This document shows, one piece after another, positions 6,501 through 20,424 of a stretch of 24,000 nucleotides of DNA. The stretch comes from Eubacterium sp. AF22-8LB. GTDB taxonomy: Bacteria > Bacillota_I > Bacilli_A > Erysipelotrichales > Erysipelotrichaceae. Under the pieces are notes generated by a model. That model searched no databases and was not told the DNA's origin. It saw only the letters and a program-made list of their open reading frames with translations. Where the stretch lies: the NCBI RefSeq assembly GCF_003458715.1, contig NZ_QRVI01000001.1:57997-81996 (forward strand). Reading direction: 5' to 3'. The position numbers were made by a program, and so were the translations under genes. The first letter of the stretch is position 1; the number at the start of each line of letters is the position of its first letter.

Positions 6501-6530
6501 AACAAGAAAAAGGCAATCCAAAGATTGCCT
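6501..6530 (-). terminator. Rho-independent terminator closing the Mo/Se operon
   Basis: Minus-strand RNA reads AGGCAAUC-UUUG-GAUUGCCU followed by UUUUCUUGUU. The 8-bp stem starts at the VanY stop codon. Confidence 0.7.
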
Positions 6531-7317
6531 AAGCTCCATAATATTCATCTAAAGTTAAGTTGTTCTTATATAAATATGTAGCTAGATCCACACCAACATA
6601 TCTTAAATGCCAGCTTTCAGGAGCTATTTTAGTCTTATCTTCCTTATCATCCGGATAACGTAAAATAAATCCATATTTATGCATATTTTTTAATAACCAA
6701 CCATAATGTGAATTATATCGAACAGCATCTAAATCACTACAATCATTATCCATACGAATATCTACAGACAAACCGGATTGGTGCTCACTATATCCTGGTC
6801 TTGTCCAATAACGATCTGCATACTCTTCACCATAGCTTGCAGCTCCATTATTAAACAAATCCGTTTGGTAAGCGTAAGAACGATATGCCGAACAAGCATT
6901 CAAAATAAATCCTTCTTTTTCGGCTGCATCAATCAATTTATTAAATGCCTTTGCGGCAGGCTTACGCATACGCACATTCGCATTTTCTCCACTCGAAGGC
7001 ACTTCAACCAAATCCTTTGGCTCATAATCTTCTGGCAATCCTGAATATTTATTTACAAGAATATAAATAGAATCCAAATCTGAAACCGTGATAGTATTCT
7101 CATAAGGCTCTTTGCTCTGATCGACCTTTGTCACTTTTGGCAAATTCGTTTCCGTATCTTCTTTTTTAGAAACCACTTCCTGTGTTTGTTGCGGCTGACT
7201 CACCTTATTATCATTCGTTCTTTTCATAATCAATGCCAATAATAACGCAATAATCATAATCAATACGATTATCACAAACACAAGAAATTTTCTTACTCTT
7301 CTTCTTTTCTTTTTCAA
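6529..7317 (-). CDS. VanY-type D-alanyl-D-alanine carboxypeptidase (peptidase M15B), membrane-anchored
   Basis: KKKRRR followed by a TM helix, then the M15B motifs SEHQSGLSVD and WHLRYVG. I moved the start to the TTG at 7317 (SD AGAGGTG 6 nt upstream), which removes the 38-nt overlap implied by the ORF-track ATG at 7368. Confidence 0.85.
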   Translation of the reverse strand: MKKKRRRVRKFLVFVIIVLIMIIALLLALIMKRTNDNKVSQPQQTQEVVSKKEDTETNLPKVTKVDQSKEPYENTITVSDLDSIYILVNKYSGLPEDYEPKDLVEVPSSGENANVRMRKPAAKAFNKLIDAAEKEGFILNACSAYRSYAYQTDLFNNGAASYGEEYADRYWTRPGYSEHQSGLSVDIRMDNDCSDLDAVRYNSHYGWLLKNMHKYGFILRYPDDKEDKTKIAPESWHLRYVGVDLATYLYKNNLTLDEYYGA

Positions 7318-7330
7318 ATCAAACACCTCT

Positions 7331-8698
7331 TTAAACTGGAATAAACAACACTTTATTATAGCCCCCACAAATCATGCCCAATGACGCACCCTTAGAATTG
7401 GATAAATTATAGTCTTTGATCATGACTTTTTTACATGCCCTCGCATCTAATATAGCTTCATATTCCACTTTTCCTCCACCTATTGTGTCAATAATTCCAT
7501 CTTTATACACGAGCATCATACTTCCAACACCTCTTGGTGCCGAGCCTTTTTTCTCAATAATAATGCATAATGTTCCGTGAACATTGGATTCCAACAATTC
7601 TTTAGAAACACTCGAGCTAAACTTCGCATTCTTGATTTCAATCAATTGAGCCAAAATACTAATCGATATTTCAGCTGGCGTCTGTGCCCTGATATCTAAA
7701 CCAATAGGTGCATGTACTTGGGATATTTTTTCTTTTGAATAGCCTTCTTCAATCAAAGCATCAAAAGTTTTTTTCACTTTCCCTTTACTGCCAATCATCC
7801 CTAAATATAAATGAGGTCGCCAAAGAACCTTTTCTAAACATAGACGATCATCCTTATGACCTCGAGTTACAATCACATAACATGTATTGTCTTCATTTGG
7901 CAATATTGAATCCATTTGATTATATTCCATACAATGAATTTCATTTGCGGTTGGAAAACACTCCTTATTCGCAAACTCTATGCGATTATCAATTACGATT
8001 GTATACAGTTCTAGAATACTGGCCATCTTGGCTAAATACTGACTTACATGCCCACACCCCAAAATCACCAGCTTAGGTTGTGTTTTAAACCAATCTTCAC
8101 AAATGCAATCCACATCTATATCTTCTTCTAACAATGTTTTTAGACAACGCGTATATAGATTCGAATCCCCATTCACATGAATTTTAACAGGTTTATCTAG
8201 CTTCTTTAAATACACACGAATCAAATCCTGCATAATTTTAGGTGTAACCAATTCATTCGGATCAATATCCATTAACGTATATCGATGTATCACATTCTTT
8301 ACAGGATTACCCAATCCTTTCAGATTGGAAATCAATACAATTTCATCCGAATCTAAATCAATGACAGGTTCCTTTTCATTCGGATATTTTAAAGGTAAAT
8401 GTTTAGAACCATCCGCTTCTATCAAAATCACATCCACCATTTTTTTAAGTTGATTCAACAAGTTCAAATCTAAGGCACAAATTTTTTTATCATCACACAA
8501 ATTTCCCGCATGACAATACCCATACTTTTCAATTTGATGCATTATTTCATCCAAACTAGGATTGACTAAAGTATCCTCTTCTATCAACATATGTGTCGTT
8601 GTACACATTAATACTGTTTTTCCCTGTGATACATATTTATCTTTTAATTCATGGATATATGTTGTTTTTCCACCTGAACCAATAACACTAATAATCAT
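7331..8698 (-). CDS. Fusion protein: YqeC-family selenium cofactor biosynthesis P-loop protein (N-terminal about 210 aa) joined to an XdhC-family Moco-insertion chaperone module
   Basis: YqeC motifs: ISVIGSGGKTT, CTTTHM, ILIEADGSKHLPLKYPNEKEPVI. XdhC Rossmann part: LVILGCGHVSQYLAKMA...GMIGSKGKV...HAPIGLDIRAQTPAEISISILAQLIE. XdhC_CoxI-like part at the extreme C-terminus: KKGSAPRGVGSMMLVYKDGIIDTIGGGKVE...MICGG. Start set at the ATG at 8698 (SD GGGAGA 6 nt upstream) rather than the GTG at 8719. Confidence 0.8.
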   Translation of the reverse strand: MIISVIGSGGKTTYIHELKDKYVSQGKTVLMCTTTHMLIEEDTLVNPSLDEIMHQIEKYGYCHAGNLCDDKKICALDLNLLNQLKKMVDVILIEADGSKHLPLKYPNEKEPVIDLDSDEIVLISNLKGLGNPVKNVIHRYTLMDIDPNELVTPKIMQDLIRVYLKKLDKPVKIHVNGDSNLYTRCLKTLLEEDIDVDCICEDWFKTQPKLVILGCGHVSQYLAKMASILELYTIVIDNRIEFANKECFPTANEIHCMEYNQMDSILPNEDNTCYVIVTRGHKDDRLCLEKVLWRPHLYLGMIGSKGKVKKTFDALIEEGYSKEKISQVHAPIGLDIRAQTPAEISISILAQLIEIKNAKFSSSVSKELLESNVHGTLCIIIEKKGSAPRGVGSMMLVYKDGIIDTIGGGKVEYEAILDARACKKVMIKDYNLSNSKGASLGMICGGYNKVLFIPV

Positions 8699-9779
8699 TT
8701 GAAATCTCCCGAATCGCACAAATTGCTAAATCTATATCTTCAATTGAATTTTGAAAAGATAATGATAAGCGAACTATTCCCTTTTCTTCTGTTTTTAAAT
8801 GTTTATGCATAAGTGGTGCACAATGCGCACCACAACGCGTTATAATACCATACTTATAATTCAGTACATCACTCACATAAGCACTATCTTTATGTGGAAT
8901 ATTGAATGCCACAATCGAAGTAGAATTTTGTAAAGACGAATAAAATTCTACATATCCTTCTAAACCTGAATATAGTCTTTCTAATAAAAAACGTTCCTTT
9001 TCAATAATCTCTTTTTGATGCGAAGCAACATATTGAACACCTGCATTTAAAGCCGCAATTCCAACTAAATTCTGTGTTCCCGCCTCTAAATGCTCTGGAT
9101 ATGCATGGGGCATTTCTTGACTAAAAGAATCTATACCCGTTCCACCAGAAATCAAAGGTTTTACTTCAATGTCTTTTACACAAAAACCACCAATACCACC
9201 GATACCTAAAAGGCCTTTGTGTCCACTAAAACATAAGATATCTATGTTTTCTATAGACACAGGAATATGTCCTGCACTCTGTGCTGCATCTACCATCAAT
9301 AACACACCATGTTCTTTACAATAGTGTCCAATTTCTTGCACATCAAAAATTTCTCCAGTCACATTTGAACTGTGAGTCATAACAACCATTCGTGTATTTA
9401 GCTGAAATTGATTTTTAATATCCTCTAGATAAGGCGAACAAATTGTTAGTGAAATGAACCCCTTCTTTTCTAACTCATATAAAGGGCGAAGAACACTATT
9501 ATGCTCTGCATACGTCGTGATCACATGATCCTTTTCTTTTAAGATTCCTTTGATGCATGTATTTAAGCTTTCCGTATTTCCACTATTCAATATCACACGA
9601 TGAAAATCTGGTATTTGAAAAAAATTAGCCACGTTTTTTCGTGTTTGAAAAATCAAACGCGAAGCATCCATATTCGCACTGCGATTGGCATTTCCAGCTA
9701 CCTCCATAGCTTCTATGACAGCTTGCTTCACAGTATCAATTTTAGGAAAACTCGTTGCTGCCTGATCAAGATAAACCAT
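8688..9779 (-). CDS. Class V aminotransferase: NifS-like cysteine desulfurase / selenocysteine lyase (short EF2568-type subfamily)
   Basis: YLDQAATSFP N-terminus, PLP lysine in FSGHKGLLG and active-site Cys in RCGAHCAP. The 363-aa length with a short N-terminus fits the clade linked to the E. faecalis SelD/YqeB/YqeC cluster. Confidence 0.8.
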   Translation of the reverse strand: MVYLDQAATSFPKIDTVKQAVIEAMEVAGNANRSANMDASRLIFQTRKNVANFFQIPDFHRVILNSGNTESLNTCIKGILKEKDHVITTYAEHNSVLRPLYELEKKGFISLTICSPYLEDIKNQFQLNTRMVVMTHSSNVTGEIFDVQEIGHYCKEHGVLLMVDAAQSAGHIPVSIENIDILCFSGHKGLLGIGGIGGFCVKDIEVKPLISGGTGIDSFSQEMPHAYPEHLEAGTQNLVGIAALNAGVQYVASHQKEIIEKERFLLERLYSGLEGYVEFYSSLQNSTSIVAFNIPHKDSAYVSDVLNYKYGIITRCGAHCAPLMHKHLKTEEKGIVRLSLSFQNSIEDIDLAICAIREISNDY

Positions 9780-10557
9780 GCAATATAGCCTCCAAGACGC
9801 CTCCTGCTATGCAGCGTGCTTTATCTGAAATCGTAAAACAATTCTGATATTCACCGATTCTTGGATCAATATCTGCCATTTTAAAGCCTGTCGTTACATA
9901 ATATCCATCTTGAATCAAGCCCCGAAGTAGCCCTGACATGCTCGCATAAACAGGTGTCTTGTCTACATACGCAATAATTTCATTCTTTTCCACAATATCT
10001 GTAATCTTTTTTACATTGTGACAAGCACCCTCACAAGGCGAATGAATCACTCTTTCTTTAGAATATCCCTTAATATTTCCAGGTACACCCGTATTTGGCA
10101 ATGCGCAACCATCGTAAATCAATCTTCCTAAATTATGTCCACGCATTGTTTCCACAACAACATGTACATCTTTGCCCGCACAAAAACCTGGGCCAAGACC
10201 AATTGTAATAGGCGCCATATCCATTGTTGTTCCTAAATTCTTTTTAGCTAGAATCGCATCCACTAAGGCCACATGTTCTATTTTCAAAATCATTTCTCCA
10301 TTTGGATCCACCATCATTGCCACTTGATTCTTTGACATGACTTCTTTTGCTTCTTCAATTGTAGAAACTAAAATACACGTCATATCTTCAACAGAAAATT
10401 CACCTTCATATACAGCTTGGCAAAAAGCAACATTTCTTCGTATCGCGCTTGGCTTTTCGACTTCTAACACCAAGACTTGAAATCCACTCTTCACAAGCTT
10501 ATAGATTGTTCCTGTCGCAATGTCTCCTCCACCACGCACAATTACACATTTATCCAT
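9766..10557 (-). CDS. yqeB: Selenium-dependent molybdenum hydroxylase system protein, YqeB (EF2563) family
   Basis: 263 aa. N-terminus VIVRGGGDIATGTIYKLVKSGFQVLVLEVEKPSAIRRNVAFCQAVYEG is characteristic of this family as I recall it. Confidence 0.75.
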   Translation of the reverse strand: MDKCVIVRGGGDIATGTIYKLVKSGFQVLVLEVEKPSAIRRNVAFCQAVYEGEFSVEDMTCILVSTIEEAKEVMSKNQVAMMVDPNGEMILKIEHVALVDAILAKKNLGTTMDMAPITIGLGPGFCAGKDVHVVVETMRGHNLGRLIYDGCALPNTGVPGNIKGYSKERVIHSPCEGACHNVKKITDIVEKNEIIAYVDKTPVYASMSGLLRGLIQDGYYVTTGFKMADIDPRIGEYQNCFTISDKARCIAGGVLEAILHGLS

Positions 10558-10562
10558 AATCC

Positions 10563-11156
10563 TTACGGCTTGATAATTTTATCAGCCTTCTCCATTCTCT
10601 CTACAATATCATACATATTTGTGACAGATCCTACTTGTAACTCTTCTTTTAAGTGGAAGAAATCCAAACAAGTTCCGCAACTTACAATTTCAACTCCATT
10701 TGATTCCAAATATTTCAAATCCTCTAAAGTCTCATTCTTTGTTGTTGTGATTTTTACACCCTCATTATAAAAAATCATTTCATCTGGTAAAGCATCCTGC
10801 TTTGTCAAAGAAAAGATGAATGATTTCATTAATAAAGTGCCTAATTCCGGGTTTGATCCCATCACATTGCTTGCGCAAACCACTACCATTTTAGGTTTAG
10901 CACAACTACAATCTGCATATGTGTATTCCACTTCAAAATCAGCCTCTTCATCACCCTTTGAAATTTCAACAATATAATCCTTGCCCTCTTGTTTTGAACT
11001 TACCGAATAGTTCTTCACCTTCGCAAATTTAGTTAAGTTTTCAACCGCAATTTCATTATCTACAATTGTTGAAACTACATTCTCCTCTTTCAAAGCATCC
11101 TTGGTTTTTACGACTGGAAGTGGACACTCCAATCCTCTACAATCTAAAGTTTTCAT
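10563..11156 (-). CDS. yedF: YedF-type selenium metabolism protein (TusA/SirA-like N-domain fused to a DsrE-like C-domain)
   Basis: 197 aa. CPxP sulfur-carrier motif in LDCRGLECPLPVVKTK. The C-terminal domain has GSNPELGTLLMKSF...FYNEGVKI...SCGTCLDFF...NMYDIVE. Confidence 0.8.
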   Translation of the reverse strand: MKTLDCRGLECPLPVVKTKDALKEENVVSTIVDNEIAVENLTKFAKVKNYSVSSKQEGKDYIVEISKGDEEADFEVEYTYADCSCAKPKMVVVCASNVMGSNPELGTLLMKSFIFSLTKQDALPDEMIFYNEGVKITTTKNETLEDLKYLESNGVEIVSCGTCLDFFHLKEELQVGSVTNMYDIVERMEKADKIIKP

Positions 11157-11160
11157 CTCT

Positions 11161-12177
11161 CTACCTCACATATACATTATATTCATTTTTATCAATAACT
11201 TCACCCACAACATATAGCTCGAGATTGTTTTCTATAAAATTCTTTTTTATATCCATCAAATCTTCTTTAGATACACTTGCCAACAATCCACCACTGGTTT
11301 GTGGATCAAATAAAATCTCTTCCGTAAAGAAATCACAATCAAAATAAATCTTACCCTCTACGCTGTTTCGATTCGTCTGTGCAGCCCCACTCAAATAGAA
11401 CTCTTCCACATATCTTTTACAATCATCAAAACAAGGAATCGAATCCTTGTAAATTATGGCACTGTTCTTGTCATCTAACATTTCATTTAAATGTACTAAT
11501 AGTCCAAAACCAGTCACATCCGTTAAAGCATGCACATCATACTTTTTTAAAGCATCACACGCATACTTATTTAGCGTAGTCATGCTTTTAAAGACACGCT
11601 GCTGCATACTTTCTGAACAATCGTCCATGCGCAAAGCATTTAAAGTTAATCCTACTCCAAGTGGCTTTGTCAAAATTAAGACGTCTCCACTTTCAGTCCC
11701 ATTATTTTTCTTTACGTCTTTCGGATTTACTAATCCTGTTACACTCAAGCCATATTTAATTGAATCATCACGAATAGAGTGGCCTCCTGCCAACGCACAC
11801 CCAGCTTCAACCAGCTTAGAATTTCCTCCCTCAATGATTTTACCTAAAATATTCAAATCCTCATTATCCGGAAAACACACAATATTTAAAGCTGTTTTAG
11901 GCGTACCATTCATCGCATAAATATCGCTCAATGCATTCGTTGCCGCAATCTGGCCATATAGATATGGATCTTCTACCATAGGTGGAAAGAAATCCAACGT
12001 GGATACAAAGGCATGACTTTCATCAATTTGATACACAGCTGCATCATCCCTAGAATCAAAGCCAACCAACACATTATCATTTTTATAAGAATCAATTTTT
12101 TCTAAAATGTGGCTTAATTTTTTAGCCCCTAATTTAGCACTACATCCACCACTCTTACAATATATTTTCTCATTCAT
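11161..12177 (-). CDS. selD: Selenide, water dikinase (selenophosphate synthetase), Cys-type
   Basis: N-terminal glycine-rich loop SGGCSAKLG, with the catalytic position encoded by TGT (Cys, not a TGA Sec codon). AIR-synthase-like fold motifs: DDAAVY, LDFFPPMVEDPY, ALSDIYAMNG, GGHSIRD, TDVTGFGL. 338 aa. Confidence 0.9.
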   Translation of the reverse strand: MNEKIYCKSGGCSAKLGAKKLSHILEKIDSYKNDNVLVGFDSRDDAAVYQIDESHAFVSTLDFFPPMVEDPYLYGQIAATNALSDIYAMNGTPKTALNIVCFPDNEDLNILGKIIEGGNSKLVEAGCALAGGHSIRDDSIKYGLSVTGLVNPKDVKKNNGTESGDVLILTKPLGVGLTLNALRMDDCSESMQQRVFKSMTTLNKYACDALKKYDVHALTDVTGFGLLVHLNEMLDDKNSAIIYKDSIPCFDDCKRYVEEFYLSGAAQTNRNSVEGKIYFDCDFFTEEILFDPQTSGGLLASVSKEDLMDIKKNFIENNLELYVVGEVIDKNEYNVYVR

Positions 12178-12398
12178 TAAAAATTCACCCTAACTATATC
12201 CTCATATGAAATGTTATTTTCCTCTAAAAAAACTCTCCACTTTTCAATATTTAGATCCTTAGACATAAAACACATACCACATCCAGCTTTAACACAGCTT
12301 GGAACAGGAATCATACGTCCATTCTTTGTGATGCTTTCTAGTTCTAATACATCTTGAATACTCTTAAAAGTAATAATCAACACTTTTTCTTTATTCAT
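12177..12398 (-). CDS. DUF3343 (putative Se/S carrier-like) small protein
   Basis: 73-75 aa. Pattern VLIITFKSIQDVLELESIT...RMIPVPSCVKAGCGMCF. Its stop overlaps the selD ATG by 1 nt (TAATG). I prefer the ATG at 12398; the TTG at 12404 is also possible. Confidence 0.65.
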   Translation of the reverse strand: MNKEKVLIITFKSIQDVLELESITKNGRMIPVPSCVKAGCGMCFMSKDLNIEKWRVFLEENNISYEDIVRVNF

Positions 12399-12723
12399 TT
12401 TCAAATATTTCCTTAAACACTTCGTCCGTATACATATCCACTTTTTCTTTGAATACTTTATATTTATGAACCAATATTTTCCCTTCCGGTGTTAAAAAAG
12501 AACCACCACCATGATTTCCTCCACTTATCGTATGAACTAGCTCATAGCCTAAATCCTCTTCAGCTCTTTTAATGATTTTCCAAGCCTTTGAATTTGACAT
12601 TCCCATTTCTTTATAGGCCCTCGATAAAGAGCCATATTGATCGCATAAGTCTAAGAGTTCGACAACGCCTTTGCCAAAATCCATTTCTTGGTTGCCAATT
12701 TGAATCTTTAATTTATATCTCAT
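12391..12723 (-). CDS. ModE N-terminal-domain-like winged-HTH protein (no Mop/TOBE molybdate-binding domains)
   Basis: GKGVVELLDLCDQYGSLSRAYKEMGMSNSKAWKIIKRAEEDLGYELVHTISGGNHGGGSFLTPEGK matches the ModE/LysR-type N-terminal domain. Start set to the ATG at 12723, which overlaps the upstream stop as ATGA. Confidence 0.65.
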   Translation of the reverse strand: MRYKLKIQIGNQEMDFGKGVVELLDLCDQYGSLSRAYKEMGMSNSKAWKIIKRAEEDLGYELVHTISGGNHGGGSFLTPEGKILVHKYKVFKEKVDMYTDEVFKEIFENE

Positions 12724-13733
12724 TTTCCAAAACCACAATTTGGATATGTGCAAGCCTTACATCCTAAGCACAATCCACCTTCTCCTAAATCACATAACTC
12801 TTCATAGGTAACTACATCTTTTGCGAGTAAACGAGGAAGTATTAAATCAAACACCGTTCTTTTGGCATACATGACACAGCCTGGAAGCCCCACAATTGGT
12901 ACTTCGCCTTTATAGGAAAGTAAAAACATAGCTCCAGGAAGAACAGGCGATCCATAACTAATTATATTGGCTCCGGTATTCTTGATTGCAAGTGGCGTTT
13001 TGTCGTCTGGATCCACACTCATTCCACCTGTACAAAGTACAATATCTACACCTTGTTTTAATGCTTCATTAATTTTTTTGGTCACCATTTTATCATCATC
13101 ATCGCAAATTTCATGATAAACCATTTCACAACCAAACTCAGCTAATTTTTTCTGAATAACGGGTGTAAATGTATCTTTGATTCTTCCCTTATACACTTCA
13201 CTTCCTGTTGTGATCACAGCTGCTTTTTTTAATACAAAAGGCTTAATTTCTAGAATTGGAGAAACAACTAAAGAACGGACTTTCTCCATTTTTTCCTTTT
13301 CAATCACCAAAGGAATAATACGCATACCTGCCAATTTATCTCCAGGATGAACCACCATATTTCCATGTCGAGTCGCAATCATCATTTGTCCAAATGAATT
13401 CACAGTAAACAAAGATTTACGATCCACTTTAAACAAACCATGGATGTCACTTTTTAATTCAATCTTACCCTCTTTGATTTCACCATACGACATATATTCA
13501 TTTTTACACATGTCTAGCAAAACCATAGCTGCATCATTTTCATGCATCATACTCTCGTCATTTTCCCAAACATATAAATTTTCTTTCCCCACCGATAACA
13601 ATAAAGGAATATCTTCTTCTGTCACGATATGACCCTTACGAAAAAGGGCATCTTTTGTGACACCCTTTATAATCTGCGTTATATCATGACAAAGTACATG
13701 CCCTACGGCATCCTCAGTTTTGATTAATTTCAT
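12720..13733 (-). CDS. MoeA-like molybdopterin-binding protein (atypical short form with a Cys-rich C-terminal tail)
   Basis: Central MoCF_biosynth domain: AAVITTGSEVYKGRIKDTF...DIVLCTGGMSVDPDD. The N-terminus is only loosely MoeA_N-like and there is no MoeA_C domain. The tail is CDLGEGGLCLGCKACTYPNCGFGK. Confidence 0.65.
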   Translation of the reverse strand: MKLIKTEDAVGHVLCHDITQIIKGVTKDALFRKGHIVTEEDIPLLLSVGKENLYVWENDESMMHENDAAMVLLDMCKNEYMSYGEIKEGKIELKSDIHGLFKVDRKSLFTVNSFGQMMIATRHGNMVVHPGDKLAGMRIIPLVIEKEKMEKVRSLVVSPILEIKPFVLKKAAVITTGSEVYKGRIKDTFTPVIQKKLAEFGCEMVYHEICDDDDKMVTKKINEALKQGVDIVLCTGGMSVDPDDKTPLAIKNTGANIISYGSPVLPGAMFLLSYKGEVPIVGLPGCVMYAKRTVFDLILPRLLAKDVVTYEELCDLGEGGLCLGCKACTYPNCGFGK

Positions 13734-13734
13734 A

Positions 13735-14511
13735 TTACTCTCCTTTTTTGAATCCGTATTTCTTAAATACTTTTAATGCTTTATCGCTCTTTAAGAATTT
13801 AATTAATGAATCCGCTTCATCTTTGTGCTTTGTACTAGAAACACGACCTACTGGATATAGGACTGGTGTAGCTAATAATGAATTATCGCACTCTGCCACT
13901 ACTTCTACTTTATCACTACTTGCCGCATCTGTCGCGTAAACCAAACCAACTTCTGCATTTCCTGCTTCAACCTGAGACAATACTTCAGTTACATTTCCAG
14001 CTAAACTTAGACGATCTTGAAGCAAATCCCATACACCTAAATTTGTCAAAGCCTCTTTTGCGTAGCTTCCTGCTGGCACAACCTCTGGATCTCCAATCGC
14101 AATCATAGAAGCAGCACTAATATTGTCAAATCCAGTTACTGTTGTATTGCTGCCTTTTCCTTTGATCAATACTAATTTATTTTCTAATACATTTGAAATA
14201 GAATCCGCATCTACTAAATTTTCATCTTTTAAAGCGTTCATCTGTGTTGTAGCTGCACTAAAGAAAACATCTGCATCTAAACCTTTTTCAATTTGAAGCT
14301 GTAGCTTTCCACTACTATCATACACACCTTCGATTGTCACATTTGAATACTCCTTTTCAAACATAGGAATCAATTCATCTTCAAATGCATTCTCTAAACT
14401 TGCCGCAGCTGCAATTGTTAGTTTTACTTCTTCTTTCGGTTTATTTGAACTACACCCAAATAAACTTGTGGCCATCACTCCAGCCAATAAAATACTTAAA
14501 CCTTTTCTCAT
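13735..14511 (-). CDS. modA: Molybdate ABC transporter substrate-binding lipoprotein
   Basis: Signal peptide with lipobox LFGCSS. ModA-type motifs: TIAAAASL, VYDSSGKL, DVFFSAA, IGDPEVVPAGSYAKEAL, VLYPV. Confidence 0.85.
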   Translation of the reverse strand: MRKGLSILLAGVMATSLFGCSSNKPKEEVKLTIAAAASLENAFEDELIPMFEKEYSNVTIEGVYDSSGKLQLQIEKGLDADVFFSAATTQMNALKDENLVDADSISNVLENKLVLIKGKGSNTTVTGFDNISAASMIAIGDPEVVPAGSYAKEALTNLGVWDLLQDRLSLAGNVTEVLSQVEAGNAEVGLVYATDAASSDKVEVVAECDNSLLATPVLYPVGRVSSTKHKDEADSLIKFLKSDKALKVFKKYGFKKGE

Positions 14512-15140
14512 GTAATTTCTCCGTCTTTAATCTTATATTTTAGATCACACAAATAATTCACTTCTTCCTTATTGTGTGATACAAAAATAACGGGTTTTGA
14601 GATTCGAAGCTCGCTTTTAAGCTCCTTTAATAAATCTTCCTTTAAATCTTCATCCAAAGCACTAAACGGCTCATCGAGCAATAATACATCGGGCTCATAC
14701 GCCATCAAACGAGCTAATGCCACTCTTTGTCTTTGTCCACCTGACAATTGTTTAGGATATCTTGGAGCAAGTTCACTAATTCTAAATTGTTTCATCACTC
14801 TTTTAACAACAAAATCCACATCGTTCACTTTTCTAGCTTTTAATCCCATACTAATATTTTCATATACATTCATATTAGGAAATAAAGCATAGCTTTGAAA
14901 CATATACCCCACGTTGCGTTTTTGAATGGGAATATTGATTTTCTTTTCGGAATCAAATAAAACACGATTATTCAAAGTAATTCGCCCTTTATCTGGTGTT
15001 TCAATACCTGCAATACATTTTAATGTCATACTTTTACCTGAGCCTGAAGCCCCCATAAGGCCTAATATATTGTCTTCTACTTGAAATGAAATATCTAAAT
15101 CAAACTCTGCAAGCTTTTTGTATATTTGTACTTCTAACAT
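14508..15140 (-). CDS. modC: Molybdate ABC transporter ATP-binding protein, minimal NBD (210 aa, no C-terminal TOBE domain)
   Basis: Walker A GASGSGKS, Q-loop, signature LSGGQRQR, Walker B LLLDEP and H-loop VSHN. The protein ends about 20 aa after the H-loop. Confidence 0.8.
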   Translation of the reverse strand: MLEVQIYKKLAEFDLDISFQVEDNILGLMGASGSGKSMTLKCIAGIETPDKGRITLNNRVLFDSEKKINIPIQKRNVGYMFQSYALFPNMNVYENISMGLKARKVNDVDFVVKRVMKQFRISELAPRYPKQLSGGQRQRVALARLMAYEPDVLLLDEPFSALDEDLKEDLLKELKSELRISKPVIFVSHNKEEVNYLCDLKYKIKDGEIT

Positions 15141-15830
15141 TTAGAAACTCCTTTTCTTCCGAACATACAATTGATATAGATTCAACAAGATTACAGCTGT
15201 AAAACAAATACCAATAATTACCCACACATAAAAGGCAGCAGAATCCATATCTCCACTCATCACTTCACTATAAACAGCAACCGGAAGTGTCCTTGTCTTT
15301 CCTATAATGTTTCCCGCAAGCATTGCCGTTGCCCCAAACTCACCTAGACCACGCGCAAAAGCAAGTACTCCACCACTAATAATTCCCGGCAAGGCATTGG
15401 GAATTAACACCTTTAAAAAGATGCTCCATTCACTCATTCCTAGAGTTCTTGCGACATAGACCAAATCCATATCCACCTGTTCAAAAGCCCCCCTGGCATT
15501 GCGGTACATAAGTGGAAAAGATATCACAACAGCTGCAATCACGGTAGCGCTAAAGCTAAATGCGATACGAACACCAAATGCATTCATAAAGAACTTGCCT
15601 ACGGGTTGATTCACGCCAAAGATCATCAACAAGAAAAAGCCAGCTACTGTTGGTGGTAAAACCATAGGCAAAGTAAAGAGTCCATCAAATATCATTTTCA
15701 ATGCTTCACTTTTTCGTGAATAGATCCACCATGCAGCTAGCAAACCAAGAATAAACGTAATCACAATTGTGATACTTGCCGTTTTTAGAGATATCCAGAT
15801 AGGGGTTAAATCCAAGTTATTTCCTTGCAC
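15141..15830 (-). CDS. modB: Molybdate ABC transporter permease
   Basis: 229 aa with about 5 TM helices. EAA-loop region ARTLGMSEWSIFLKVLIPNALPGIISG. It sits next to modC and modA. Confidence 0.85.
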   Translation of the reverse strand: MQGNNLDLTPIWISLKTASITIVITFILGLLAAWWIYSRKSEALKMIFDGLFTLPMVLPPTVAGFFLLMIFGVNQPVGKFFMNAFGVRIAFSFSATVIAAVVISFPLMYRNARGAFEQVDMDLVYVARTLGMSEWSIFLKVLIPNALPGIISGGVLAFARGLGEFGATAMLAGNIIGKTRTLPVAVYSEVMSGDMDSAAFYVWVIIGICFTAVILLNLYQLYVRKKRSF

Positions 15831-16752
15831 ACTCTCTCGCTTCCCCTTTCATGATTTCTAAACCATGTTTTAATGGGCCTAAAATAATATCTAAGCTTTC
15901 CTTTACTGCCTTAGGACTTCCTGGTAAATTGATAATCAACGTTTGATTTCTTAATACACTTACACCACGTGACAACATAGCCTTGTTGGTATATTTCATC
16001 GATTCATAACGTAATGCCTCACTAATACCCGGAACATTGCGTGTCATAACTTTCATTGTGGCTTCCGGCGTCACATCACGAATACTTAACCCAGTTCCTC
16101 CGGTTGTAAGAATCAAATCATTTTGGCAACGATCACTTAAATTGATCAATTGCGAAATAATTTCATTTTCATCATCCGCAATTACCGTTACACTCGTCAC
16201 ATTGTATCCATGTTCTGTCATGATTTTTTTAATCAATGGACCACTCTCATCTTTTCTTTGTCCTACACTAGCCTTATCACTTAGTGTTAATACGGCTACG
16301 CGCATTCTAGAATCCTTATTTTCAATGACTTCAACTTTATTTCCAACACAAATATGTCCACCATGTATTACACGAGTAAACACCCCTAAATGAGGCATAA
16401 TACACTGTCCTACTTGATGATAAATAGCGCAATGTGAATGACAGCTTTTTCCAATTTGAGTAAGTTCTAGTAATACGTCTCCAATCTTAAATTGTGTTCC
16501 TACAGGATAATCTGTGAATTCAATACCTGATACAAGTAAATTTTCACCAAAGGCTCCATCCTCTACATTGGCTCCTTTGGCCTTAAATTCTTCACGCTTT
16601 TCATATGATAATAAAGAAACCTGGCGATGCCACTTGCCTGCATGTGCATCATTTTCTAATCCATGATCTTCAATAATTTTAATATCTTGAACTGGATGTT
16701 TTTCCGTTCCTTTTTGTTTGCTGATACAAATAGCTTTAATTATTCCTTCCAT
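15817..16752 (-). CDS. Fusion: MOSC domain (N-terminal about 145 aa) joined to a MogA/MoaB molybdopterin adenylyltransferase-type domain
   Basis: MOSC part: [19 protein letters not shown]...[11 protein letters not shown]...[10 protein letters not shown]...[10 protein letters not shown]. MogA/MoaB part: [11 protein letters not shown]...[21 protein letters not shown]...INLPGSPKA. Confidence 0.8.
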
Positions 16753-17216
16753 ACAAAATCCCCACTCTTTCCACCTGATTTAGAAACCAAATGTATATTC
16801 TTGATTTCCATATCTTTACTTATAGCTTTACACATGTCATAAATTGTCAGAAGACAAACATTCACACCTGTCAAGGCTTCCATTTCTACACCTGTTTTTC
16901 CATTACACTTAACTGTACAATAGGCGTAGATCAAACAATTCTCTTTATCGATTTCAAAATCAATATTTACTTTATTGATCATTAAAGGATGACACAAAGG
17001 AATCAAATCACTCGTCTTTTTTACACCCATGATTCCAGCTATTCGAGCTACACCTAGTACATCCCCTTTTTTCATATCGCTATGTTCGATTTTCTCAATA
17101 ATCTCTTTATTCACTAATATACTTCCAACAGCACAGGCGCTTCTTGAAGTGATATCCTTTTCACTTACATCCACCATACGTGCGTTTCCTTGTTTATCAA
17201 AATGCGTTAATTCCAT
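16740..17216 (-). CDS. moaC: Cyclic pyranopterin monophosphate synthase accessory protein MoaC
   Basis: [23 protein letters not shown] and GVEMEALTG motifs. I moved the start to the ATG at 17216 (SD GGAGG 5 nt upstream, 1 nt after the moaA stop) instead of 17234. Confidence 0.9.
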
Positions 17217-17217
17217 T

Positions 17218-18162
17218 TCATCCTCCAATTTCATTCATCACCGTCGATGAATTTTCCTTCTCAAAATGATGTTCCTTAGGCTTCTTGAATATCCACTCTC
17301 TCATCACTTTTTCTAATTCTGATAAATTATCTAAATATGGCTTTAAATCCACACCATCCATATGGAATAAACATAATTTCAATCGTCCTACACTACTTAA
17401 GCGTATACGATTACAGTCTTGACAAAACTTATTATGTAACGCTTCAATAAAACCAATATAGCCTTGATAATCTGTTATTTTATAATAGTGTGCCGGCCCA
17501 TTTCCAAGCTTTTTATCGTACACATTTAATGTATAATTCTTTTGTACATATTCAATCAATTCATCCATTTTTGTGTTTCGATCACTATTCTTTAATGGCA
17601 TCAGTTCAATAAATCGCAGCGCAATCTTTTTATCTTTGATGAGTTCCAACATAGATTCAAAGCGTGAAAATGAAAATAGATTATCCACAACACAATTCAC
17701 TTTAACCGCAATTCCAATCTTATAAGCATATTCCAAATTCAAAAGAATTTTCTTCAAATTATTTATCTTACATATCTTTAAATATTCAGATTCATCTAAT
17801 GTATCAATTGAAAAATTTATACAATCAATACCAATCTTTTTGAGTTCATCTAAATCAGAAAACGAAAATAAACTTCCATTGGTCGTTAGTGTTACTTGTT
17901 CAACACCATCTAATTCTTTCAATCTACGAATAAATCCAATATATCCTTTACGAAGTGTGGGTTCTCCACCCGTAATTTTAAATCGCGTGATTCCTAATAA
18001 AACGGCACATCTACAAATATCTAAAAGTTGTTCATACGTTAATATATCCGAATGACAAAGATGTTTTGCGATATCTGGCTTGCAGTAGTAACAAGCATAG
18101 TTACATCGGTCTGTTAATGAAATTCGCATATAATTTATGTTTCGTCCAAATGAATCTTGCAT
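17218..18162 (-). CDS. moaA: GTP 3',8-cyclase MoaA (radical SAM)
   Basis: [19 protein letters not shown] radical-SAM cluster motif, a C-terminal CxxCxRxRL second cluster ([12 protein letters not shown]) and a terminal GG. SD GGGAAGGA. Confidence 0.9.
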
Positions 18163-18174
18163 AATATCCTTCCC

Positions 18175-18196
18175 GTTATTCTCATGCGAGAATAAC
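18175..18196. promoter_or_regulatory. Perfect inverted repeat GTTATTCTC-N4-GAGAATAAC between the candidate promoter and the moaA SD (operator or 5'-UTR hairpin)
   Basis: The 9-bp perfect arms were read directly. The repeat ends immediately next to the SD, 13-34 nt upstream of the moaA ATG. Confidence 0.45.
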
Positions 18197-18207
18197 CAAC
18201 TGATTCA

Positions 18208-18236
18208 ATTTTATCATTGAATCTACATTTTATCTA
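18208..18236 (-). promoter_or_regulatory. Candidate promoter of the Mo/Se operon (extended -10 TGATAAAAT, weak -35 TAGATA, 17-nt spacer)
   Basis: Minus strand reads ...TAGATAaaatgtagattcaaTGaTAAAATtgaatc... This is the only sigma-A-like -10 upstream of moaA in the 89-nt intergenic region. Confidence 0.35.
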
Positions 18237-18251: not shown

Positions 18252-18791
18252 ATGAAACGATGTACGTGGTGTAATCTAAACAATCCAAAATATATTGAAT
18301 ATCATGATAACGAATGGGGAAAACTGAATACAGATGAAAAATATCTATTTGAAATGTTGATACTTGAATCTTTTCAGGCAGGACTAAGCTGGCAATGTAT
18401 TCTAAATAAAAGAGAAGCTTTTAAAGAGGCTTATGAAGACTTTGACATTGATAAAGTGATTGAATTTGATGAAGAAAAAGTAGAACAATTAAGAAACAAT
18501 CCTAATATCATTCGTAACAAATTAAAGATCAAAGCGAGTATTTCAAATGCGAAGATTTTTAAATCCATTCAAGAAGAGTATCAAACTTTTTATAATTATT
18601 TATGTACTTTTACACATGGGAAGATTAATTATGAAACAGGAAAAACCACATCGACTCTTTCGGATTCCATATCAAATGATTTAAAAAAAAGAGGCATGAA
18701 GTTTGTAGGAAGCACCATTATATACTCCTATCTTCAAGCCATTGGTGTTATTTATTCTCACGAAAAAGATTGTTTCTTATACAAAGACTAA
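18252..18791 (+). CDS. tag: DNA-3-methyladenine glycosylase I
   Basis: Full-length similarity to E. coli Tag recalled from memory: RC.W....P.YI.YHDNEWG, FEML.LE.FQAGLSW, KFVG.TI.YS.LQA.G...H...C. Confidence 0.9.
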   Translation: MKRCTWCNLNNPKYIEYHDNEWGKLNTDEKYLFEMLILESFQAGLSWQCILNKREAFKEAYEDFDIDKVIEFDEEKVEQLRNNPNIIRNKLKIKASISNAKIFKSIQEEYQTFYNYLCTFTHGKINYETGKTTSTLSDSISNDLKKRGMKFVGSTIIYSYLQAIGVIYSHEKDCFLYKD

Positions 18792-19120
18792 TCCCATGTT
18801 TTCCATACATTTGGTTCATAACCTACTGTCGCCAATTTGCCGTTACGCACGATTGGCGTTTTTAGTATGTGCTGGTTAAGATACACCTTTTCCTCTTTAT
18901 TCGATAAATAATTCAACATCGTCAATAATTCTTTATCCTTCGCCTTTGGATCAATCATAGAATCAATTCCTACTTGTCTTAATACACTCTCAAATTCTTT
19001 CTTACTCATTTCTTTTTCATCTAAATTGATAAACTGAAACTTAATATTTCTTTCTTTAAAATAGCGTTGTGCTTTCTTTGTATCAAAGCACTTGTTCTTC
19101 CCAAAAATCTGTATATTCAT
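18788..19120 (-). CDS. ArsC/Spx/YffB-family thioredoxin-fold protein
   Basis: 110 aa. N-terminus IQIFGKNKCFDTKKAQRYFKERNIKFQFINL is typical of the ArsC family. Its start overlaps the upstream amidohydrolase stop as ATGA. Confidence 0.7.
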   Translation of the reverse strand: MNIQIFGKNKCFDTKKAQRYFKERNIKFQFINLDEKEMSKKEFESVLRQVGIDSMIDPKAKDKELLTMLNYLSNKEEKVYLNQHILKTPIVRNGKLATVGYEPNVWKTWD

Positions 19121-20382
19121 CGCATTAACCTCTCTACCCTTTTTTGTACTTCATCATATAGTGTCTCAATCTCAAATCCTACATGAAAATGTCCATCTTC
19201 ATATAGAATCTTTCCATTGACCATCGTATATTTTACATTGGATTTAGATCCGCTGTATACAATATTTTTTGCGACATTATTCATTGGCTGCATATTCGGT
19301 TGATGTAAATCTAAAACAATTAAATCTGCCAACTTTCCAGCTTCTAATACCCCACAATTTAAATTTAAAGCCTTGGCTGCATTGACTGTAGCCATTTTTA
19401 GTACTTCATATGCATCGACTGCAGAAGCATCCTTCTCTTTATATTTTGCCAATCCCGTCACTAAAAACATTTCTCTAAACATATCTAGACAATTATTACT
19501 TGCCGCACCATCCGTTCCTAGACATATGTTAATCTTTCGTTGAAGCATCGATTGGATTGGGGCTATACCACTGGCAAGCTTTAAATTGGATGCAGGATTC
19601 GTGATAACATTTAAGTGTTTTTCTTCAAATAACGCTAAATCGTGTTCACTCATATGCACACAATGAAAGGCTCCACCGCCATAGTCATATACACCTAGAT
19701 CACATAAGTATTCAACAGGACTGCGTCCCGTCTTTTCTTTGCATGTATTAACTTCATATTCTGTTTCACTTAAATGTGTATAAACAGGTGCTTTATATTT
19801 ATGAGATAATGCAGCTACTTGTTGAATTTTTTCTTTAGAATTAGTATATTCATGACTAAAACCTAGTATATAAGAAATCAAACTATTTTCTTGATTGTAT
19901 TCATTGAAGCAACGCTCTACATCTTCTACAGATAGACAAAAGTCATTGACCGCACCACACAAAACTGTTCTATAATTCATATCAAGGCTTGCGTGTAAAA
20001 TAGCTTCTGGATTAATATACATATCAAAATTGGAAGTGATGCCGCTGGTTAAATATTCTAATATAGCTAATTTTGAGAAATAATAAATATCTTCTTCTGA
20101 AAGCTTTGCCTCAATCGGAAATACTTTTTCATTCAGCCACTGCTGTAAAGGCATATCATCGGCCATGGATCTTAAAAATGTCATTCCAGAATGGGTATGC
20201 GCATTGATAAAGCCAGGCATAATTAGATTCTGGCGTACATCTATTTCTCGGTCAAAACAAAAAGTAGAAGCTTTCACTTTTCCTACATATATAATCTTAT
20301 TATCTTCTATCCAGACTTCTCCTGAAAAAATATCAAAATCCTTCATCGTGAGGATTCGTGCATTATAGAATCGAATACGCAT
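19117..20382 (-). CDS. Amidohydrolase, MtaD-like (5'-methylthioadenosine / S-adenosylhomocysteine deaminase / chlorohydrolase family)
   Basis: PGFINAHTHSGMTFLRSMADDMPLQQWLNEKVFPIE, HLSET, LGTDGAASNN and LDL motifs. Start set to the second ATG at 20382 because its spacing to SD GAAGGG is better than for the ATG at 20388. Confidence 0.7.
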   Translation of the reverse strand: MRIRFYNARILTMKDFDIFSGEVWIEDNKIIYVGKVKASTFCFDREIDVRQNLIMPGFINAHTHSGMTFLRSMADDMPLQQWLNEKVFPIEAKLSEEDIYYFSKLAILEYLTSGITSNFDMYINPEAILHASLDMNYRTVLCGAVNDFCLSVEDVERCFNEYNQENSLISYILGFSHEYTNSKEKIQQVAALSHKYKAPVYTHLSETEYEVNTCKEKTGRSPVEYLCDLGVYDYGGGAFHCVHMSEHDLALFEEKHLNVITNPASNLKLASGIAPIQSMLQRKINICLGTDGAASNNCLDMFREMFLVTGLAKYKEKDASAVDAYEVLKMATVNAAKALNLNCGVLEAGKLADLIVLDLHQPNMQPMNNVAKNIVYSGSKSNVKYTMVNGKILYEDGHFHVGFEIETLYDEVQKRVERLMR

Positions 20383-20424
20383 ATGCATCCCTTCTTTCTA
20401 ATCTAATCATCCCACAAATAGAAT

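Follow-up and report, generated by a model that had tools for sequence, protein, structure and literature searches.

The 24,000-nucleotide stretch of the Eubacterium sp. AF22-8LB genome analysed here (contig NZ_QRVI01000001.1, positions 57,997 to 81,996; hereafter the window) carries 15 co-directional open reading frames (ORFs) on its minus strand, from position 18162 to 6529. This gene train brings molybdate uptake and molybdenum cofactor (Moco) synthesis together with selD, yqeB and yqeC, the signature of selenium-cofactor maturation. Searches with Pfam and NCBIfam hidden Markov models placed every gene as claimed in the original prediction, which had been made from the letters of the window, and the train contains no unassigned ORF. 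From upstream to downstream, the features are as follows, with the score of the supporting model and its cutoff where there is one.

18208 to 18236, minus strand: promoter-like site (TAGATA, 17-nt spacer, TG-extended TAAAAT; 9/12 matches)
18174 to 18197, no strand assigned: 24-bp ModE-box-like palindrome, GGTTATTCTC-GCAT-GAGAATAACG
17218 to 18162, minus strand: moaA, GTP 3',8-cyclase of the radical SAM type (TIGR02666, 291 bits, cutoff 284; Pfam Radical_SAM and Mob_synth_C)
16740 to 17216, minus strand: moaC, cyclic pyranopterin monophosphate (cPMP) synthase (PF01967, 196 bits; NF006870, 238 bits, cutoff 162)
15817 to 16752, minus strand: MOSC domain (PF03473, residues 36-141) fused to a MogA/MoaB-type molybdopterin (MPT) adenylyltransferase domain (PF00994, residues 153-294)
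15141 to 15830, minus strand: modB, permease of the molybdate ATP-binding cassette (ABC) transporter (TIGR02141, 231 bits, cutoff 183)
14508 to 15140, minus strand: modC-like ABC ATPase, short, 210 amino acids (aa) (TIGR02142, 200 bits, cutoff 285)
13735 to 14511, minus strand: modA, molybdate-binding lipoprotein (TIGR01256, 167 bits, cutoff 62.5)
12720 to 13733, minus strand: Mo337, atypical MoeA-like molybdopterin-binding protein (PF00994 as its sole Pfam domain)
12391 to 12723, minus strand: ModE-N, 110-aa helix-turn-helix (HTH) protein like the N-terminal DNA-binding domain of ModE (TIGR00637, 59 bits, cutoff 98.5)
12177 to 12398, minus strand: selenium/sulfur (Se/S) carrier, DUF3343 (PF11823, 52 bits)
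11161 to 12177, minus strand: selD, selenophosphate synthetase, Cys form with SGGCSAKLG (TIGR00476, 385 bits, cutoff 125)
10563 to 11156, minus strand: yedF, selenium metabolism protein with TusA-like and DsrE-like parts fused (TIGR03527, 215 bits, cutoff 110)
9766 to 10557, minus strand: yqeB, selenium-cofactor trait marker (TIGR03309, 375 bits, cutoff 220, full-length match)
8688 to 9779, minus strand: NifS-like class-V pyridoxal phosphate enzyme of the EF2568/SclA (selenocysteine lyase) type (PF00266, 230 bits)
7331 to 8698, minus strand: yqeC::xdhC fusion (PF19842, 122 bits; PF13478, 132 bits; PF02625, 55 bits)
6529 to 7317, minus strand: VanY/LdcB-type carboxypeptidase (PF02557, 126 bits)
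6501 to 6530, minus strand: intrinsic terminator (8-bp stem, 4-nt loop, T-tract)

The tight packing described in the original prediction was confirmed when we recomputed the junctions with alternative start codons and ribosome-binding sites (RBSs) taken into account: each is an overlap or a gap of no more than 13 nt. Overlaps of 1 to 14 nt occur at ten of the 14 junctions, three of them of the ATGA or TAATG type, and the gaps at the non-overlapping ones are 0, 1, 4, 5 and 13 nt. moaC either starts 1 nt after moaA, at ATG 17216 behind a GGAGG RBS, or overlaps it by 17 nt with ATG 17234. The MOSC-MogA gene overlaps moaC by 13 nt and modB by 14 nt, modB and modC abut (0 nt), modC and modA share an ATGA, and 1 nt lies between modA and the gene for the 337-aa protein Mo337. 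With ATG 12723 as its start, ModE-N is joined to Mo337 by an ATGA overlap; it overlaps the carrier gene by 8 nt, and the carrier gene overlaps selD by 1 nt. Gaps of 4 nt (selD/yedF) and 5 nt (yedF/yqeB) follow, and then overlaps of 14 nt between yqeB and the sclA-like gene and of 11 nt between the latter and yqeC::xdhC, taking ATG 8698 as its start. The last gap, of 13 nt, requires that vanY begin at TTG 7317, which has a good RBS (AAAGAGGTG) and yields a complete signal anchor; on public contigs gene callers start vanY at ATG 7257, and the gap is then 73 nt.

This arrangement recurs in other organisms. Human-gut metagenome contigs carry an identical YqeB in the same gene order, and the closest relatives among GTDB contigs with one genome per species are two uncultured Holdemanella metagenome-assembled genomes (MAGs), with YqeB identities of 93% and 91% and the order of 14 genes seen here; we assign the window itself to Holdemanella (Erysipelotrichaceae). 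The same order of 14 genes, tightly spaced, is found in a relative with 77% YqeB identity (L009; locus numbers are our own), in Erysipelatoclostridium/Coprobacillus (L011, L012 and L015; 69%) and in Catenibacterium (L016; 66%). Because tight packing is kept in these relatives, it reflects more than chance. The genes for taking up molybdate and making Moco are indeed physically coupled to those for selenium.

The conserved unit consists of the 14 genes from moaA to yqeC::xdhC (18162-7331). The original prediction had also counted VanY; the gene does adjoin the others here in the same direction, but it is not a member of the conserved unit. vanY is co-directional only in Holdemanella, lies on the opposite strand in L009 and is absent in Coprobacillus (L011). 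In one Holdemanella strain (L096, a 507-kb contig), an IS110-family transposase at 17001-18116 splits yqeC::xdhC from vanY, so this junction tolerates disruption. On these grounds, VanY is a lineage-specific co-directional passenger.

On the molybdenum side, the original prediction had recognised the MogA half of the MOSC-MogA protein correctly and left the MOSC half unmentioned; the protein scores 115 bits with PF00994, 118 bits with TIGR00177 (cutoff 85) and 145 bits with NF006932 (cutoff 158). The ModC-like ATPase falls below the TIGR02142 cutoff because only positions 1-210 of the 353-position model are matched. No MoeA_N or MoeA_C domain was detected in Mo337, and all MoeA models of NCBIfam score far below cutoff. 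Its domain III aligns to residues 189-317 of E. coli MoeA, including the GLPG motif, and its AlphaFold2 model (predicted local distance difference test score, pLDDT, 85) has full-length MoeA, gephyrin E and Cnx1E as best Foldseek matches (E=4e-9). In place of the usual MoeA C-terminal domain, Mo337 has an invariant four-Cys tail, CLxCxxCxxPxCGFGK, which could form a metal or Fe-S site. Its identity across distant Firmicutes is about 70%, and that of YqeB is slightly lower, roughly 64-69%. Judging from the model and from the missing MoeA_N and MoeA_C domains, Mo337 is fairly called MoeA-like and not a canonical MoeA.

On the selenium side, SelD, YqeB and YqeC all score above cutoff, which bears out the selenium-cofactor signature claimed for the window: the ORF at 9766-10557 is placed as YqeB (375 against 220 bits) and that at 7331-8698 as YqeC (TIGR03172, 130 against 73 bits). 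The YqeC match covers residues 9-167 and includes a GSGGKTT motif. Both XdhC Pfam domains of the fusion are above cutoff, while TIGR02964, at 135 bits, is below its cutoff of 162. The order of the XdhC part, with the Rossmann domain (residues 217-359) before XdhC_CoxI (376-429), is the same in L101; it looks circularly permuted relative to the NCBIfam XdhC-type model, in which the Rossmann domain is C-terminal. The two best-scoring models for the NifS-like protein are TIGR01977 (359 bits, cutoff 377) and the SclA model NF040779 (305 bits, cutoff 525). No sequence relative of YqeB was found in the PDB, and its predicted structure (pLDDT 80) combines a Rossmann-like N-domain with a lipoyl/BCCP-like beta-sandwich. 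Foldseek matched these two parts only weakly, and we rejected the derivation of a YqeB mechanism from structure.

To see how general the association is, we surveyed 80 species-level yqeB loci with 10 kb on each side, labelling ORFs by phmmer with the window proteins and the Coprobacillus xdh genes as queries. yqeC accompanies yqeB in 72 of the 80 loci, selD in 47, xdhC and yedF in 44 each, sclA in 42, mocA in 34, the gene for the xdh Mo subunit in 32, Mo337 in 25, ModE-N in 24, moaA in 22 and modA in 19. moa, mod and selD genes occur together in 14 loci, in varied gene orders; among the genera represented are Anaerostipes, Roseburia, Anaerotignum, Fusicatenibacter and [Eubacterium] saphenum-like organisms, and five of these loci also have the hydroxylase. 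Two Clostridia MAGs (L021 and L029) arrange the window's gene set differently, as a train of 20 co-directional genes: two permeases, xdhFAD/FeS/Mo, selD, DUF3343, sclA, yedF, yqeB, ModE-N, mocA, Mo337, modABC, moaA, moaC, MogA::MoaE and xdhC::yqeC.

Gene fusions connect the same families. Besides YqeC::XdhC, which is found in most of the 80 loci, we saw YqeB::SclA, YqeC::MocA, YqeB::MocA, YqeB::MoaC, MogA::MocA, MoaC::MOSC::MogA and ModE-N::MocA. The YqeB::SclA proteins (650-664 aa; L017, L019, L028, L042 and L049, at about 10001-11990) come from Anaerostipes, Robinsoniella and related MAGs, and this fusion predicts that YqeB and SclA work together directly. In L031, L034, L035 and L086, a recurring trio of ORFs (~360, 68-70 and 81-85 aa) lies between sclA and selD; these may encode a YedE-type selenium transporter and small carrier proteins.

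Since moa, mod and selD genes are combined in varied orders in 14 of the 80 loci and gene fusions accompany them, the association of Moco supply with selenium delivery appears to be functional and widespread, not peculiar to the window. It could be objected that a Moco/molybdate module and a selenium module have become neighbours by chance or as a selfish operon, with SelD serving mainly selenocysteine or selenouridine and no link between the two. The window does lack a hydroxylase, and in C. difficile and E. coli these genes are scattered. Nevertheless, we find this barely credible: the moa/mod genes meet selD/yqeB in several orders and are often interleaved with them, YqeB::MocA, YqeB::MoaC, YqeC::XdhC and YqeC::MocA fuse selenium to Moco functions, and one and the same DNA box, described below, precedes moaA in some genomes and yqeB, selD or ModE-N in others.

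The original prediction had further pictured the train as the most complete self-contained assembly line of its kind. This is not supported. Pfam searches of the window genes found no MoaD/MoaE, MoeB, MocA or hydroxylase in the train. NTP_transf_3 (MocA/MobA) has no match in the window, and no MoaE or ThiS/MoaD match occurs among the genes of the window and 10 kb on either side. The E. coli MoaD/MoaE seeds had no match in 92 loci, although these seeds are insensitive. With the XdhMo large subunit of Coprobacillus as the query, no Holdemanella copy was revealed, and the best Holdemanella hydroxylase candidate (P0244) was rejected as belonging to another organism, where xdh follows yqeC-xdhC. 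Fuller trains exist in relatives. In L011, L012 and L015, which share the 14 genes, their order and the ModE box with the window, genes for a xanthine permease, xdhFAD/FeS/Mo and a MocA-like protein follow directly downstream, giving 19 genes and a more complete unit than the window's; in L015 this block, from moaA to the MocA-like gene, measures about 16.7 kb. The trains of L021 and L029 have the same gene set and box as the window in a different order, together with xanthine/uracil permeases, xdhFAD/FeS/Mo and mocA, and their MogA::MoaE replaces MOSC::MogA. Thus, the 14-gene arrangement is neither unique nor self-contained.

The MogA::MoaE proteins also bear on the missing MPT synthase. A divergent Pfam MoaE domain fused to MogA scores 36 bits in L021 and L029 (cutoff 23.4), and a jackhmmer search with this domain returned L021, L027 and L029 only. 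The fusions lie at 16952-17848 in L021, 16935-17831 in L029 and 17059-18630 in L027, where MocA is fused as well. These three loci have no MOSC match, and elsewhere MogA is fused to MOSC; MOSC and MoaE therefore look like mutually exclusive partners of MogA in the loci examined.

We then considered how the train may be controlled. ModE-N matches PF00126 with 31 bits (cutoff 26.6), its sole Pfam domain. It is 110-120 aa long and matches the 263-position ModE model NF007957 only at positions 22-93. The palindrome at 18174-18197 is situated downstream of the -10 element and upstream of the moaA RBS, with 13 nt separating it from the start of moaA; GTTAT-N12-ATAAC matches nowhere else in the window, where 0.01 matches would be expected. 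A strict form of this box (at most two substitutions) occurs once per locus in 23 related loci, before moaA, MOSC-MogA or ModE-N, mostly 10-15 nt before the start codon and up to 70 nt when the longest-ORF starts are used. A relaxed form was found in 16 of the 24 loci with ModE-N as against one of the 56 loci without it (Fisher p=4e-10); it lies before moaA, selD or ModE-N, or between divergently oriented xdh and ModE-N genes. The outer arms CGTTAT/ATAACG are invariant, and the inner bases differ by lineage. The box is present in L009-L019, L042, L049, L067, L081, L083 and L102-L181.

A metagenome scan of 241 million records for the 18 specified bases only, with no gene condition, returned 80 loci, in which the box stands directly upstream of ModE-N (24), moaA (18), yqeB (12), MOSC-MogA (1) or yqeC (1). 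In two environmental metagenome contigs (L110:205-1074 and L112:3896-4765), a strict box precedes a gene that encodes a ModA/WtpA-like periplasmic binding protein of 289 aa, and selenium genes are absent from its surroundings, so the pair of box and ModE-N is broader than the selenium supercluster.

In E. coli, the sequence immediately upstream of modA is CGTTATATTGTCGCCTACATAACG, which we take to be the ModE operator of modABC. It has the same half-sites at the same 12-bp spacing (CGTTAT-N12-ATAACG). The two systems thus share an outer palindrome just upstream of the first regulated gene, and the HTH of the window's regulator resembles the N-terminal one of ModE, with a score below the TIGR00637 cutoff; they differ in that the window's regulator has 110 aa as against the 263 positions of NF007957, and in that its inner half-sites, TCTC/GAGA, are not those of E. 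coli. Because the palindrome is conserved, tracks ModE-N and follows the layout at E. coli modA, it is probably the operator of the train's own ModE-N. It could also act as an RNA hairpin. No RNA family, the Moco riboswitch included, was detected in a scan of the whole window at Rfam gathering thresholds.

In Faecousia and related MAGs (L023, L048, L056, L071, L072 and L078), a protein of about 300 aa combines the HTH of ModE-N with a MocA-like nucleotidyltransferase domain. Because of this fusion, there are hints that ModE-N may sense a cofactor intermediate or a nucleotide instead of molybdate. E. coli ModE binds molybdate through its C-terminal Mop/TOBE domains, the part that ModE-N lacks.

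The train has the layout of a single operon: its genes are co-directional with minimal gaps, no terminator interrupts it, and one terminator lies downstream. In line with the original prediction, the terminator at 6501-6530 (stem at 6530-6511 plus T-tract) is the sole convincing one on the minus strand, and no internal terminator that would split the train convincingly was found; two further minus-strand matches inside it have short stems and poor T-tails. The prediction's single candidate promoter at 18208-18236 exists as a site, but its exclusivity was not borne out, as promoter-like matches occur at chance frequency across the region (60 against 58.2 expected from shuffles). From sequence, the 14 core genes are probably expressed from one promoter, gated by the ModE-type operator at 18174-18197, and a single transcript would span the train.

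An alternative is that internal promoters, lying for example before Mo337 or selD, divide the train into at least two transcription units, and that VanY has a promoter of its own. The evidence for it consists of about 30 promoter-like matches on the minus strand within the train, including one of 11/12 at 14129-14102, of a ModE box in Anaerostipes that lies within the cluster, between moaA and MOSC-MogA, and of the 73-nt gap that gene callers leave before vanY. However, the number of matches equals the shuffle expectation, the overlaps at 10 of the 14 junctions and the lack of a convincing internal terminator speak for a continuous unit, and the window has only one ModE box. The site at 14129-14102, the best internal match, is not conserved in the sister Holdemanella species and was rejected as a functional promoter. 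We therefore consider a division into several units unlikely.

Together, our results suggest that this region is a conserved selenium-Moco supercluster, gated by a ModE-N operator, that would supply an XDH-family hydroxylase through a SelD/YqeB/YqeC-XdhC route; we put the probability of this reading at about 0.8. What is known of the families, together with genetics from C. difficile and C. sporogenes, leads us to propose the following model; the sequence of chemical steps, what YqeB, YqeC, Mo337 and MOSC each do, and the binding of ModE-N to the box are inferred. ModABC would import molybdate, and MoaA and MoaC would produce cPMP. An MPT synthase encoded elsewhere would add the dithiolene to form MPT, which the MogA domain would adenylate; insertion of Mo would then fall to Mo337, the MoeA-like protein. 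Meanwhile, selenium would be mobilised and passed on by the SclA-like lyase, the DUF3343 carrier and YedF to SelD, which would make selenophosphate. The fused XdhC domain would hold Moco as a chaperone while YqeB and the YqeC domain add the labile Se to it, and XdhC would then load the cofactor into a hydroxylase of the xanthine dehydrogenase family, whose gene lies immediately downstream in sister genera and would lie elsewhere in the window's species.

The genetic support is as follows. In C. difficile, yqeB and selD are required for purine use (PMC11448449); in C. sporogenes, loss of selD leaves DOPDH inactive (bioRxiv 2025.04.24.650524). The chemistry of labile-selenium insertion has not been reconstituted (PMC11448449; bioRxiv 2025.04.24.650524). 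C. difficile has the same marker families as the window, yet its genes are dispersed and stand away from selD, whereas those of the window form one train; its yqeC has as neighbours mocA and a gene whose annotation reads molybdopterin cofactor biosynthesis protein (PMC11448449).

Several observations weigh against this model. No MoaD/MoaE, MocA or hydroxylase gene was found within 10 kb beyond either end of the window in the same species (about 44 kb in total), so the existence of a client is an assumption. ModE-N misses the TIGR00637 cutoff and is too short to contain the C-terminal part of a full-length ModE. In three lineages, a C-to-T change in the palindrome would preserve a G-U pair, as would suit an RNA hairpin. 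Promoter-like hexamers within the train, some 30 on the minus strand, occur at a frequency no different from chance. The SclA-like protein reaches neither curated cutoff, and deletion of yqeC in C. difficile had no phenotype (PMC11448449).

The scores of the SclA-like protein, below the cutoffs of both SclA and TIGR01977, would also suit a sulfur relay, in which the NifS-like enzyme, YedF and DUF3343 feed the dithiolene or the terminal sulfido ligand of an ordinary sulfur-type Moco and SelD, YqeB and YqeC are only loosely connected. In E. coli, TusA influences Moco synthesis. As MPT synthase is missing from the train, sulfur has to be relayed from some source. The DUF3343 family has been linked to selenocysteine lyase and YedF, and has no selenium-specific subfamily (PMC5322559). 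We nonetheless judge such a relay highly unlikely here: YedF is an equivalog match to TIGR03527 (215 bits, cutoff 110) from a family almost restricted to SelD-containing genomes (PMC5322559), YqeB::SclA fusions tie the lyase to the selenium marker, and selD sits in the middle of the NifS-like, YedF and DUF3343 genes.

A bolder version of the selenium-Moco model is that selenium enzymes have a distinct late Moco route, in which Mo337, MOSC::MogA and YqeC::XdhC would build and selenate the cofactor before its insertion and ModE-N would not sense free molybdate. In its strongest form, the clusters of the MOSC type may operate without a canonical MPT synthase, as, in the loci examined, MOSC and MoaE appear mutually exclusive on MogA and MoaD/MoaE otherwise never occur in the cluster. 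It is tempting to speculate along these lines, but we regard this version as quite unlikely.

None of the families is new, and public genomes routinely carry annotations for these genes. The selenium-cofactor cluster EF2563-EF2572 of E. faecalis V583 (PMC2276186; PMC2432076) shares with the window YqeB, YqeC, a DUF3343-like hypothetical protein, the SirA-like YedF, SelD, the NifS-like EF2568, XdhC and a ModE homologue. It has a hydroxylase (EF2570) and a MobA-related protein (EF2569), whereas the window train has neither hydroxylase nor MocA; moaA, moaC, mogA and modABC are not mentioned in the published cluster. Relative to it, the window train adds cPMP synthesis, MPT adenylation, a MoeA-like protein and molybdate transport, and its YqeC is fused to XdhC. 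Fusions of XdhC and MobA-related proteins to YqeB or YqeC have already been noted (PMC2276186; PMC2432076). In the literature searched, no paper brought up selD, yqeB and moaA jointly, and we found no description of a selD/yqeB train merged with moaA, moaC, mogA, Mo337 and modABC, none of a ModE-box regulon, and nothing on Holdemanella and selenium enzymes or on moaE in E. faecalis selenium clusters.

A further parallel exists in Moco sulfuration, which involves XdhC and NifS4 in R. capsulatus and the Moco sulfurase ABA3/MOCOS, made of NifS-like and MOSC domains, in eukaryotes. The window train likewise has an XdhC chaperone, a NifS-like enzyme and a MOSC domain, and the two halves of ABA3/MOCOS are present in it as separate proteins. 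Unlike in these systems, the chalcogen is predicted to be selenium, by way of SelD, YqeB and YqeC, and MOSC is fused to MogA and not to the NifS-like protein.

Outside the train, past a divergent tag gene, the window contains genes for a TRZ/ATZ-type amidohydrolase (423 aa) and a glutaredoxin/ArsC-like protein (110 aa) at 18788-20388; this pair neighbours the train only in Holdemanella. We rejected the amidohydrolase (19117-20388) as SsnA (TIGR03314, 175 bits against a cutoff of 455). Its best curated models are of the N-ethylammeline chlorohydrolase, TRZ/ATZ hydrolase and 5'-deoxyadenosine deaminase types, all below cutoff.

The window is one more instance of the supercluster and not a new principle, and nothing is overturned by it. 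On the question of how labile selenium reaches the Mo centre of selenium-dependent hydroxylases, which drive anaerobic purine and urate breakdown in the gut, the evidence as of 2024-2025 is genetic and concerns selD and yqeB only. The supercluster provides a parts list for this question: YqeB, YqeC::XdhC, the SclA-like lyase, YedF, the DUF3343 carrier and SelD, along with the under-noticed Cys-tailed Mo337 and MOSC::MogA. The natural fusions YqeB::SclA, YqeC::XdhC and YqeC::MocA predict joint action, and the conserved ModE-type operator is a testable handle on regulation. In sister genera, the blocks of 19 to 20 genes include the client enzyme and could be transferred to a heterologous host.

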